This document shows, one piece after another, positions 1-6,073 of a stretch of 6,193 nucleotides of DNA. The stretch lies in the IMG/VR virus record IMGVR_UViG_2663762857_000022; one strand, given 5' to 3'. Within the stretch, counting starts at the first letter, position 1. Every line of letters starts with the position of its first letter. Both the position numbers and the translations under genes were made by a program. Origin of the DNA: a virus. Taxonomy: Monodnaviria; Loebvirae; Hofneiviricota; Faserviricetes; Tubulavirales. The notes beneath the pieces are model-generated. The model saw only the letters and a program-made list of their open reading frames with translations. It searched no databases and had not been told where the DNA came from.

Positions 1-486
1 ATGCTGATTGCATGGCTGGAAAAGCAGCAGCAGGAAAACGCCGGTGAAATGGAGCTGGCTGACCTTGAAGGTTTCTACCGCGATGCTAAAAAGCATTACG
101 ACGAGGATGAAGAGTTTGCCGAGCGTGCACGTAACTACGTGGTAAAACTGCAAAGCGGTGACGAATATTTCCGCGAGATGAGGCGCAAACTGGTCGACAT
201 CACCATGACGCAGAACCAGATCACCTACGATCGTCTGAACGTGACGTTGACCCGCGATGACGTCATGGGTGAAAGTCTCTACAACCCAATGCTGCCGGGT
301 ATCGTGGCGGACCTGAAAGCCAAAGGTCTGGCAGTAGAAAGTGAAGGCGCGACCGTTGTATTCCTTGATTTTTTCTGTCTCAGCTCTGATACAACCGTAG
401 ACGCAGGCAAAGGATGTGCAGGTGTCACGGTGCTTTCAGGCACAGGAGGGACAGCGGCACTAGCCTCCCGATCGCCGGAGAAATAA
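1..486 (+). CDS. Hypothetical protein, acidic and probably helical; may continue upstream of the window; unknown function
   Basis: 161-codon ORF with enterobacterial-type codon usage (CTG, GAA, CGT, AAA) and a protein-like charged N-terminal 120 residues. The last ~40 residues ([41 protein letters not shown]) look atypical. The 3' 208 nt overlap the pI tail on the opposite strand. Convergent with the phage genes. I do not recognise the family. Confidence 0.45.
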
Positions 487-1328
487 TGTCGGGCAACGGC
501 AATCATCGCGGTGACGAGGAAAAGAAAGGCAATCAGCTTGCCCCACGGCTTTTTCTGTGGGGTGGCCTTTTTTTCGGGTTGTTGAGATAACGGATTCATT
601 GTTTTAAGTGTGCGCCCGGGCAAAACAGAATAAACAGCACGCATATCCACAAAACGGCCATTAAGCAGCTCCATTCCGTCAGAGAAAATGAAATTAGTGT
701 CGTAAACGTTGTAATAATCCGCAGCCCTGATAATGATTTTATCTACGGGACGACGTGCCGCGTGAATCGTGCCGTCATAAAGAAACGTACTGGCAGCCAC
801 GTAATGAGGAATAATCCCCCTTTTGCCTGATGCAACCCCTGTTTTTCCTGGTCTGAATAATTCCATCAGTGGCGTAATCACAGGAACACGTAATTCATCA
901 AGACGGCGGCAGCGAATAATTTTAGCCCCCATCGCCTTAATTATCTGGGAATCAATCATATCTTCATGCTGCGCAATCAGATAAACATCCCAGCCCAGCT
1001 TACGGGAATGTATCAGCCAGTCAATTAACGGTAATCTGTCCTTACGGGCAAAACCACGGGTATTCAGCCATGTCGCACACTCATCAAGAAATAACGCCCC
1101 GAAGCGTGTTTTTTCATTTTCAGGGCATCCACGACCAAGAAGCTCAAAGTCTTCAATGCGGGGCATAGCCGGAATAACCGTAACGGGGTTATCCGAACCT
1201 GAGGACATATATTCAGTGTTAAGCGGAAAATTTGCCGCAACCCGTAATCCACGGCGATAATAAAGTGAGGCAAAATAAGCTGCGACAATACCTTTACCCT
1301 GCCCCAGATTACCCGTGATAACTGGCAT
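279..1328 (-). CDS. Filamentous phage assembly ATPase, gene I protein (pI) / zonula occludens toxin (Zot)-like
   Basis: 349 aa. The N-terminus [14 protein letters not shown] aligns with the f1 pI P-loop VTGKLGSGKTLVSV. Walker B-like [12 protein letters not shown] resembles f1 LDECGTWFNTR, and [20 protein letters not shown] resembles f1 IIDWFLHARKLGWDIIFLVQ (f1 sequences from memory). A single predicted TM helix (residues 264-279) is followed by a ~70 aa tail, the same architecture and size as f1 pI (348 aa). ATG at 1328. Confidence 0.85.
541..574 (+). terminator. Possible rho-independent terminator for the plus-strand ORF, lying inside the pI coding region
   Basis: 8-bp stem ccccacgg (541-548) pairs with ctgtgggg (555-562, one G-U pair), 6-nt loop, then tggcc and a T7 run (568-574). 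The 5-nt gap before the T-run weakens the call. It is about 55 nt downstream of the stop at 484-486. Confidence 0.25.
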
Positions 1329-1344
1329 AACTTACCCCGCAAAA

Positions 1345-1704
1345 TTACTTGCCAACATTAAGCCCATTTGATTTAAATAAATCATAAACCAATCGATACA
1401 CTCTATCCTTATAAAGATATATGTATGAAATAAATTGAACATGGAGGATGATATTAAAACAGTACTGAATATTTAAAGGAAGGTAACTGAATGCAACTAC
1501 AATAACATCGAGTTTATTAACATCGGAGATTTGACGAATAATAAAATTGACGGCAGATACAAGAGCATAATATGAAGTGTAGCAAAGACCAAGATAAGAA
1601 AGGAGCTTAGCCCATGCAACAGCTTTATCACCGATAACTCCTGCAATGAAACGTAGTGATTTTAAAACAACATCAACAAAAAAAGCACCTAAAATGGCCC
1701 ACAT
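1345..1704 (-). CDS. Minor coat protein pVI-like (virion cap / membrane protein)
   Basis: 119 aa, very hydrophobic with several predicted TM segments, similar in size to f1 pVI (112 aa). It sits between pIII and pI as in Ff. Its ATG (1704..1702) overlaps the pIII TGA stop (1706..1704) in an ATGA arrangement. Confidence 0.6.
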   Translation of the reverse strand: MWAILGAFFVDVVLKSLRFIAGVIGDKAVAWAKLLSYLGLCYTSYYALVSAVNFIIRQISDVNKLDVIVVAFSYLPLNIQYCFNIILHVQFISYIYLYKDRVYRLVYDLFKSNGLNVGK

Positions 1705-3612: not shown

Positions 3613-3616
3613 ATCA

Positions 3617-4042
3617 TCAGCCTTTTTCTTTACCTGCGGGCAGTGCACCCAGCGGCTGACCGTCAAAACGTTTCATGGAGCCGGAAATAAAACGATACCA
3701 GACACCATGACGTTCTGAGCCTGTCGCCCATGAGTTAACATCCACCGTGAGATAAACAGGTTTGCCCTGCAAATCAGGACATGAATTAAAAAATTTAAAA
3801 TCCTCCTCAGTACAGGAAAAGCGCTCATGCTCCTCACGGCGGACTTTTAATTTTCGGTCCTCATACGGATAGGCAATAACAATGGCATATTTGGGTTTAG
3901 CCTCAGGGTTATAATGAGAACCCGTGGGTTTTAACTCCTCATCATTTATGACAGTGACGTGAATAAAATATCCCGCCATTGTCATGCCTGAGGTAAAACC
4001 CTCAGGGGAAGGAAACGGAAAACTGTCGTAAATTTGATTCAT
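3617..4042 (-). CDS. Putative ssDNA-binding protein (gene V / RstB analogue) by position; function not confirmed
   Basis: 141 aa with a strong RBS (GAGGAG 8 nt upstream of ATG 4042), immediately downstream of Rep and upstream of the small coat-like ORFs, which is the gene V position in Ff. Basic and aromatic rich (KPVYLTVDV, GVWYRFISGSMKRF). Larger than Ff pV (87 aa), closer to the CTXphi RstB size class. No direct motif recognised. Confidence 0.4.
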   Translation of the reverse strand: MNQIYDSFPFPSPEGFTSGMTMAGYFIHVTVINDEELKPTGSHYNPEAKPKYAIVIAYPYEDRKLKVRREEHERFSCTEEDFKFFNSCPDLQGKPVYLTVDVNSWATGSERHGVWYRFISGSMKRFDGQPLGALPAGKEKG

Positions 4043-4072
4043 AAATCAGACTCCTCAATGTTAAAAATTCAG

Positions 4073-6073
4073 TCAGGGACAGTTATTGTCACAAGTCCAA
4101 GGGTCGGCTTCGCCGCCCCCACCCGCCGCGCGGGAGCGCGTCGTGCGGTGTCGTGAAGCCGACGAAATAAACACAGATTCATAGCTGCTGCCGCTTCTGA
4201 CTTCCTCTGCGCGGATTTTTTCTGCGGGGGTCATACGGCGGACAACACAGCCCATAAAACGGGTTATGACCGGAACAGGGCCAAACATGAAACCGGAAAT
4301 CACCGGTGCGCAGGGTTCACCGTAACGGTTAAAACGGGGTTTACCACCTTCCTGCGGCTGAACGTAAAAAGGACGAAGCAGACGTTCAGAACAGAAGAAA
4401 CCGCCGTTCAGCAGGATATAGGTCCGGAAATCGCCTGCATCACAGGCCATGCGGATGGCCTCCAGTTCGGCGACCTGCTGCGGCGTGAACTGCTGCATAT
4501 TGATATGATGTGCTTCAAGCGGTGAACGAAAAGTACGCATCTGGCGGTAAGCCGTGACGGACGGAACGCCAAAGAACTGGAACAGGCGAAGGCGCGTTGC
4601 TTTCTGCCAGCAGGCGGCACGGCTGACGGCATCACAGAATGAACGGGCAGAATAACGGTCATTCAGGGCGGTAATACCATCCGCACTGACATCACCCGCC
4701 ATTTTGGTGATGTACTTCACGATGTAACGGAAACCATCACCCTTTTCAGGGTCAATAGCCTCAATACAAATACGGTGCTCTTTCGCCCCCTTTTCATCCG
4801 GCTCATCGCGCATGGCCTCTTCACGGAAAATGGCCAGCACCGTTGCGCTCTCATGGGGATTGCAGTAAATCAGGAAATTCCAGTGCGTTGTACCGTCAGC
4901 ATGAGGCTCGACCGTACGCAGGCCGGGTATCTGAATACCGGCTTTATCCAGTCTGCGGCAGACCCGACGCCAGACGGTATTCAGCCAGGCGTGCGAATCC
5001 TTAACGGTCGGGCAACCTGCTTCCCACCATTTTTTATTCGGACGAGAATGCCATTTTCCGGCAACATTAAAACTGGTCGTCGGGTGAAAACGTGACGGCG
5101 TGGTGAGCACGATGAAGTAACCGGACAGCCCCATATCTTCGGACAGTTCACAGACGGCCTTTCCACGAACGCAGAGTTCAGCAATCCGGTTTTTCGGATT
5201 CGAAACAGAGGCGTTATGCGCATCTTCCAGCGTACAGATCAGCTCATTAAACGCATCAAAGACACCGGAGGACCGGAGATACTTTTTCACGCGTTTACTG
5301 CGGACAGCAAACAGGTCACGATGCCAGTCAGAAATATAAGGCGCGTTGCGGTTCAGTATGCCGAGCATGCGACAGACCTCATTGACCCGCTGGTCACGGA
5401 AAACCCGCAGGAAACGGGTGACAAAAGCCAAATCAGTCAGACGCTTAAGCAATCCCTCATCGCCGTAACGATCATGATAAGTGGCATAAACGGGGGCGAA
5501 ATCAAAGCCGGAGATGGCCTGAAAATAGGCCATCACATTGAGAAGGTGATGCTCTGGTACATCACTATAAATGGCCCGAGAAACAAGGCAGTCACGAACA
5601 ACCGAATCAGCCACCTCAGCAATCTGCTCATCAGTGCAGAAAAGCGAGAATTCATAAGGGTCTCCGTCCTGATTGAAGAAAGCAAAACGGTGAGCGGACT
5701 CAAGGGCCATCAGCGCATTTTTCACACCAAGCTGGTAAACCAGACGGCAGAACGCATGCGCTACGGTGAACGAAAACGAGCCAAACTGTGATACCAGTCC
5801 GGCAGCCCTGCCCCTGTCAGCGAGAGATAAATCCGTGCAGTTAATTCCGTAAATCACACGGTCAACCTGCGTGTTACGCGGCAATGCGAGCTGTGAAGAT
5901 AAGGTCCCGACCTCATCACGATACTGGCGGGAAAGCGTGGAAAGGTTGCGGGTGGCAACATCGCGCTCAGTCCGAAAATGCTCGCGTTCGGGCAGCGTCA
6001 GGCAGGGACGACCAAGGGCAACGGATGCCGCGTCGATGGCGTTATACGCTGTAAGGATGGCTGATTCGGTCAT
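4073..6073 (-). CDS. Rolling-circle replication initiator (Rep) endonuclease of the phiX174 gpA / P2 gpA-like superfamily
   Basis: 666 aa. ATG at 6073 with a purine-rich stretch (GAGAGA) about 10 nt upstream. Dual-tyrosine motif [11 protein letters not shown] (Y450-x-x-K-Y454-x-x-K), characteristic of two-tyrosine RCR initiators, and histidine-containing TTHWNFLIY upstream. The C-terminal ~45 residues are low complexity. Confidence 0.8.

Follow-up and report, generated by a model that had tools for sequence, protein, structure and literature searches.

An Inoviridae-type phage of Escherichia coli with an fs2-like gene layout, partially preserved on a contig with a probably chimeric end

The vibriophages fs2 and VFJ (Inoviridae, Saetivirus) and Vaf1 share a gene order in which a large gpA-type initiator, Rep (716 amino acids, aa, in fs2), is followed by a protein of ~100–140 aa, two tiny membrane proteins, the major coat protein, pIII, pVI, pI, and pIV, in genomes of 8.5–8.7 kb for the fs2 group. 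Here, we describe a 6193-bp stretch of Escherichia coli DNA (IMG/VR record IMGVR_UViG_2663762857_000022; hereafter, the window), whose filamentous phage follows the same order gene for gene and has fs2 and VFJ as its closest isolated relatives. The genome sizes are alike, but the identities of fs2 and VFJ to the window phage are only 29–30% for Rep and 32–33% for pI, and no nucleotide match was found. In our judgment, bases 370–6193 probably hold the replication genes, the structural genes, and part of the assembly genes of a temperate Inoviridae-type E. coli phage with a genome of ~8.6–8.7 kb, on a contig to whose left end a piece of the host gene argS is attached, most likely as an artefact.

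An exact-protein lookup identified the window as the entire 6193-bp contig CDQW01002537.1 of the draft assembly GCA_000936715.1, whose contig numbering points to more than 2500 pieces and hence to a very fragmented state. The exact Rep sequence and the last open reading frame (ORF) of the series, a chimeric ORF of 349 aa, were recorded on this contig alone; their 90%-identity clusters contain 2063 and 519 member sequences, respectively, and every member with a name comes from E. coli. Phage DNA extends from position 367–370 through the Rep start (6073) to the contig end at 6193. The contig carries about two thirds of a temperate E. coli filamentous phage; it lacks the pIV secretin, the repressor, the remaining intergenic region, and any attachment site. 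A megablast search of 50,697 phage records with the window as query yielded no nucleotide match, and Rfam and tRNA scans of the window were empty.

The ORF list and re-translation gave a minus-strand series of Rep, ORF141, ORF46, ORF56, coat, terminator, pIII, pVI, and pI (Table 1), with 30, 4, −8, 24, 51, −1, and 16 nt between successive genes, the overlap of 1 nt being that of the pVI start with the pIII stop. The initial annotation had reported such a one-strand order from Rep to pI with little intergenic space, and we confirmed that this order is real and far beyond chance. Its assignment to a filamentous-phage module was likewise borne out. Homology of the last protein to the pI/Zot family, on which it had made the assignment depend, was detected with PF05707 Zot (1.3e-9; 38.2 bits, cutoff 20.3) and with phrog_1675, "protein I of M13" (9e-51). 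Of the two further profile checks that it had proposed, the one for pIII gave clear family matches (Table 1), and the one for the coat protein a weak match to phrog_1646, 'major coat protein' (3.5e-3), with no match in Pfam. A pI/Zot ATPase, a coat protein, pIII together with pVI, and an HUH-type initiator are the genes by which filamentous phages (Tubulavirales / Inoviridae sensu lato) are recognized, and all of them are present. The layout had also been called canonical Ff; this is correct for the gene order, but not for the replication genes, as Rep is of the Phage_GPA type and ORF141 has no Phage_DNA_bind match, and fs2 has the same order.

Table 1. Features of the 6193-bp window. L013 is a metagenome scaffold and L001 the best chromosomal relative.
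Feature	Position	Strand	Evidence
Internal fragment of host argS (arginine-tRNA ligase, ~codons 178–300), non-phage	1..369	+	99.5% identity to argS
argS/phage junction	367..369	none	Window, pI genes of L013 and L001, and argS compared side by side
pI/Zot-family assembly ATPase, codons 1–320 of 403	370..1328	-	Profile matches, alignment of relatives, hydropathy
pVI-like minor coat protein, 119 aa	1345..1704	-	phrog_1944 'minor head protein' 1.6e-4; position and size as fs2 gene VI (116 aa)
pIII-like adsorption protein, 425–428 aa	1704..2990	-	PF05357 Phage_Coat_A 6e-9 (residues 129–174); phrog_4150 5e-24; phrog_8482
Intrinsic terminator between coat and pIII	3009..3026	-	Consensus scan
Major coat precursor, 80 aa	3042..3284	-	Sequence features; position as fs2 gene VIII
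ORF56, single-pass membrane protein, 56 aa, positional pIX/pVII analogue	3309..3479	-	Hydropathy peak 2.39; coding sequence in RefSeq relatives
ORF46, single-pass membrane protein, 46 aa, positional pVII/pIX analogue	3472..3612	-	Hydropathy peak 1.93; coding sequence in RefSeq relatives
ORF141, predicted OB-fold protein, 141 aa, likely single-stranded DNA-binding (functional analogue of gV or RstB)	3617..4042	-	Predicted structure
Rep, rolling-circle initiator of the P2 gpA family, 666 aa	4073..6073	-	PF05840 Phage_GPA 4e-48; phrog_91 'nicking at origin of replication' 2e-127
Rep upstream control region	6074..6193	-	Promoter and inverted-repeat scans; contiguous 98.4% match to L013

The phage part of pI is identical at 318 of 320 residues to a 403-aa protein of strain 100416. 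It shows 30.7% identity to f1 gene I (tblastn, E 3e-28) and 32–34% identity to pI of fs2, VFJ, and related vibriophages, which are among its best matches. A Walker A motif (GNLGQGKG), a Walker B motif (LFLDE), and a transmembrane helix at ~residues 262–283 were identified. The missing final 83 residues include the periplasmic C-terminal domain, which in Ff works with the pIV secretin; a motif of the lost domain, W..G...RYTAF...VDG..VT.WS, is common to fs2 and another E. coli pI in the alignment. A pXI-like internal start at Met244 was considered and is not claimed, no Shine-Dalgarno sequence preceding it.

Relatives of the window phage supply the parts that lie beyond the contig. An 8731-bp metagenome scaffold (L013) and a 6443-bp contig (L014) match window positions 6193..2560 without a break at 98.4% identity, and both carry a divergent 153-aa helix-turn-helix (HTH_3) repressor gene upstream of Rep. 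L014 spans the ends of L013, indicating an 8720-bp unit, circular or tandem, with the full set of repressor, Rep, ORF141, small ORFs, coat, pIII, pVI, pI (403 aa), and secretin (402 aa). Intact relatives are in general units of ~8.6–8.7 kb in which a 403-aa pI is followed by the pIV secretin. Among 5426 complete E. coli genomes, 40 carry the Rep gene in up to five copies per genome, mostly in human stool isolates. Strains 100416 and AST205 contain tandem arrays beside hipBA, with units of 8739 and 8578 bp, and in AST205 (L002) the array directly adjoins a dif site that has one mismatch. Other strains have a single copy between dinG/ybiB and hcxB, not at dif. The initial annotation had proposed to look for a flanking regulator and attachment sites in the complete genome; a regulator is present in L013 as the divergent HTH_3 repressor, but no dif-like attP was found there or in the window.

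The left end of the window is not phage DNA. All 5426 genomes match positions 1–369 in argS, at up to 99.5% identity and none at 100%. Aligned with argS of strain SK1144, this piece has two mismatches, and the sequences diverge from base 370 on. At base 181, a private TGG>AGG (Trp>Arg) change is found in none of the genomes; it would be either private variation or an error in sequencing where coverage is low at the contig end. At the junction, argS and the phage share only 1–3 nt (GAT/ATC), as seen when the nearest phage relative (...CAGAAAAAATCGGATGTG), the reverse strand of argS (...ACTCATCAAGGAATAC), and the contig (...CAGAAAAAATCAAGGAATAC) are compared. The 349-aa ORF is chimeric because bases 279–369 are the antisense of the non-phage argS fragment: after 320 phage codons, it continues for 29 codons on the antisense strand of argS and stops at 279. 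The initial annotation had placed the module at 279–6073 with a 349-aa pI. Its 320 phage codons stand, whereas 279–369 belongs to argS, and phage DNA also continues beyond 6073.

Rather than reflecting biology, the join to argS most likely arose from a chimeric fragment in the library or from an assembly error at a contig end. We infer this because argS is essential and the break falls within the gene, because the attached argS piece is only 369 nt, about one sequencing fragment, and because the assembly is poor and the junction occurs on one contig only. If so, an intact phage is likely in the strain, since eight genes are intact in the window and 98–99% identical to those of complete prophages. 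The window itself does not support the earlier description of the phage as probably functional rather than a decayed remnant, its pI being phage sequence only to codon 320 of 403. With pI truncated and with pIV, the repressor, and any attachment site absent from the contig, functionality cannot be concluded from the window. The case also bears on quality control, as a sequence with the look of a compact and complete phage turned out to be a contig fragment with one chimeric end; an ORF that seems intact is therefore no proof of function. The other end could be cleared of the same suspicion, as a second chimera there was ruled out by L013 and L014, whose unbroken match to the window includes the upstream region; the sequence simply stops there at a contig break. 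Exact-pattern scans of viral, genome, and metagenome contigs for the junction of the Rep start with the regulatory region gave no match; the arrangement was later found through a Rep cluster representative.

Several observations weigh against the reading of bases 370–6193 as a block of a temperate phage with an artefactual left end. A microhomology of 1–3 nt is also the trace of illegitimate recombination, and true pI-truncated remnants of this phage family are known, as in strain AST240, where Zot and dinG are both cut. No dif-like attP (up to five arm mismatches) was detected in the window or in L013, although a CTX-type attP in folded single-stranded DNA could escape such a scan, and no Rep-gene copy occurs on a plasmid-type record of the 5426 genomes. 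The HUH-like motif of Rep is THWNF (residues 396–400, window 4874–4888), in which Asn replaces the second His; the corresponding fs2 sequence is PHNHF. The Walker A motif of pI (window 1290–1313, codons 6–13) has Gly where Ser or Thr usually follows Lys. The same GKG is present in L001, AST205 (L002), and the E. coli type B inovirus of strain JNE23-001 (L003), that is, in two E. coli inovirus lineages whose pI proteins are only 44% identical; the residues are GKS in fs2 and in another E. coli pI. The GKG form, unusual in P-loop ATPases, is presumably tolerated because it is conserved.

The foremost alternative is that the junction is real and marks a strain or subpopulation with a deletion or rearrangement remnant, in which pI was fused to argS and the prophage is decayed and assembly-defective. 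The remnant of AST240 (L012:3728-6057) is a genuine deletion remnant of the phage family: Zot is cut to 420 bp and adjoins a C-terminally truncated dinG, and ybiB and the secretin are gone. This precedent of a truncated Zot gene beside a truncated host gene, the microhomology typical of illegitimate recombination, and the intactness of all upstream genes, as after a recent deletion, speak for such an event. On the other side, argS is an essential, single-copy gene present in 5426 of 5426 genomes. With the junction in the middle of the gene, a clonal disruption should be lethal unless argS was duplicated, and the join is found on one contig of a very fragmented assembly with 369 nt of argS only. 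Nor would imprecise excision explain the join, since argS lies ~0.4 Mb away from dif in K-12. We therefore regard a real deletion remnant as unlikely. A bolder version, in which a replicating phage genome captured the host fragment by illegitimate recombination to form a defective mini-genome that carries host DNA and persists beside an intact helper copy, and in which, independently, ORF141 represents an undescribed OB-fold family of single-stranded DNA-binding proteins specific to gpA-Rep inoviruses, appears less probable still.

A complete and functional Ff-type phage (genus Inovirus, f1/M13-like) in 279–6073 would account for the order II-V-VII-IX-VIII-III-VI-I, for the homology of pI to f1 gene I, and for the g3p N1 domain of pIII. 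It conflicts with a Rep of the Phage_GPA type, a missing gV family match, a truncated and chimeric pI, the position of pIV and the intergenic origin/packaging region outside the window, the integrated, temperate state of the relatives, and the empty search of phage records, and we consider it very improbable. Least plausible of all is a non-viral origin, as a plasmid, a P2-like prophage fragment, or a Zot-toxin island with a gpA-type Rep: Rep gave many tblastn matches to P2-like phages, the myoviruses with which the Phage_GPA family is mostly associated, and the RefSeq name of the pI gene is 'zonular occludens toxin domain-containing protein', but there are no tailed-phage genes and no plasmid copy, the best-covering Rep matches are to filamentous phages, and the set of coat, pIII, pVI, pI, and pIV is diagnostic of inoviruses.

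Returning to the favoured reading of a temperate filamentous phage, we examined its replication genes. Rep shows 29–33% identity to the proteins of Vibrio phages fs2, VFJ, and Vaf1 and Shewanella phage Dolos, the three Vibrio phages giving the best-covering matches and Dolos the top-scoring one. Its pair of tyrosines, Y450-IVK-Y454 (YIVKY), is conserved, the aligned fs2 sequence being YVAKY. In the Pfam search, Rep had no gII-type (Phage_CRI / G2P) match and matched Phage_GPA only. ORF141 belongs to a very small family (phrog_30648), with nine representatives among 1.8 billion proteins. No match to it was found in Pfam, including Phage_DNA_bind (PF02303), or in PDB sequences; the hhalign probability for f1 gV was 0.1%, and no similarity to fs2 orf104 was detectable. 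AlphaFold2 with 14 close homologues gave a predicted local distance difference test (pLDDT) score of 39. With five distant representatives added, the pLDDT rose to 84, with a predicted template modelling (pTM) score of 0.73, and the model is predicted to be an OB fold resembling single-stranded DNA-binding protein (SSB). On the basis of this structure, ORF141 is likely a single-stranded DNA-binding protein. The predicted fold provides a testable function for a small, previously unannotated family.

The region upstream of Rep contains a promoter-like site (TTGACG-17-TAGCAT at 6172..6144) and a perfect 8-bp inverted repeat (6121–6128 / 6135–6142), which is a plausible candidate operator; scans for this palindrome returned only chance matches in unrelated metagenome-assembled genomes. 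The divergent gene for an HTH repressor, expected next, would lie 83 nt beyond the end of the contig. Upstream of the Rep start codon, the window is unlike its best chromosomal relative, L001. Positions 6078–6193 are instead 87–88% identical to L003:9005-9125, beginning at the Rep start codon. The L003-like stretch includes the first 12 nt of the L003 Rep gene, with its ATG mutated to ATA, and a promoter/operator region is thus common to two inovirus lineages whose Rep families are unrelated. By analogy with the rstR variants of CTXphi, this sharing would resemble the exchange of an immunity cassette.

Among the virion genes, the coat precursor comprises a signal peptide of ~24 aa and a mature 56-aa protein with an acidic N-terminus, a hydrophobic core, and a basic C-terminus. 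It is followed by a terminator with a 7-bp stem containing six G-C pairs (AGCGCCC-TCCG-GGGCGCT, then TTTTTT). Pfam and PHROG profile searches gave no family match for ORF46 and ORF56. A signal peptide, a Cys-rich N-terminal part with a g3p N1-like domain, a Gly/Ser linker, and a C-terminal anchor were recognized in pIII, whose length across relatives ranges from 425 to 469 aa. The linker is encoded by 15/30/39-bp tandem repeats at 2200–2373 and is where homology to different relatives breaks. The GC content falls to 0.33–0.36 in pVI and the C-terminal half of pIII (window 1200–2373), compared with 0.50–0.55 in Rep, and this drop, together with the breaks in the linker, indicates modular exchange. 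A 38-aa ORF (3397..3281) and plus-strand ORFs antisense to Rep and pIII (e.g., of 191 and 97 aa) were rejected as spurious, being unsupported by the annotation of relatives.

By homology with Ff, fs2, and CTXphi, the life cycle might proceed as follows. The gpA-type Rep would nick the plus-strand origin through its tyrosine pair and initiate rolling-circle replication, and ORF141 would coat the resulting single strand. The small membrane proteins and the coat protein would be held in the inner membrane before assembly, the pI ATPase and the pIV secretin would extrude the virion, and pIII and pVI would cap it and mediate entry. The terminator after the coat gene may raise the ratio of coat protein to pIII, and binding of the repressor at the inverted repeat of the Rep promoter could confer immunity.

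Integration differs among the relatives. In several E. coli genomes with the prophage between dinG/ybiB and hcxB, the module of Rep and ORF141 is preceded by a gene of the IS110 family, annotated "RNA-guided transposase", that ends 3 nt before Rep in the same direction (L007:9447-12418, L012:8933-11904), which suggests a filamentous phage integrating by a bridge-RNA-type recombinase. A single replication module is thereby found with three regulatory or integration solutions, namely arrays in tandem at dif, an IS110-family recombinase gene next to the module, and an HTH repressor encoded divergently, and phages of the lineage are assembled from exchangeable modules: Rep with SSB, the virion genes, and the immunity/integration region. 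In E. coli UTME-13 (NZ_CP157093.1, ~2.47–2.49 Mb), the chromosome has a type B inovirus no more than ~20 kb away from a copy whose gpA-type Rep is 88.8% identical, and such proximity would allow modules to be exchanged as observed in the window. Two small 'plasmid' records from complete E. coli assemblies, NZ_AP045060.1 (9613 bp) and NZ_CP195780.1 (7439 bp), match type B inovirus genes and may be episomal replicative forms of filamentous phages deposited as plasmids.

The lineage is a new, uncultured member of the filamentous phages, of an ordinary kind, with an fs2-like layout and a gpA-type Rep, and the window documents it as a rare E. coli inovirus lineage without a cultured close relative. 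It differs from the fs2 group in its host, E. coli, in its regulatory region, and in its mode of integration; being collinear with that group but of low identity, it would not appear to belong to the genus Saetivirus. With Ff (f1, M13, fd; genus Inovirus), it shares the order of functions, the terminator after the coat gene, the homology of pI, and the g3p N1-like domain of pIII, and the Ff order of genes II to I is continued by IV in its relatives. The replication modules are non-homologous, a gpA-type Rep standing in place of gII/gX and the putative single-stranded DNA-binding protein falling outside the gV family, and Ff is episomal, whereas the relatives of the window phage are integrated and temperate. 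Tandem arrays at dif/hipBA connect these close relatives with CTXphi, CUS-1, and YpfPhi, which are integrated at dif by XerCD; YpfPhi forms arrays of two to four copies there (PMC4266046). The CTXphi type also has a divergent repressor upstream of Rep, and a CTXphi RS2 record annotated 'RstA-like protein' is 29.5% identical to Rep, but the window phage carries no toxin cargo. Finally, the co-occurring E. coli type B inovirus of strain JNE23-001 has a true Ff-type gII Rep (Phage_CRI and G2P_X_C) and a gV protein (Phage_DNA_bind), unlike the window phage, while its pI is 44% identical to that of the window with the GKG Walker A in both, and it resides at dif in tandem, like some relatives of the window phage.

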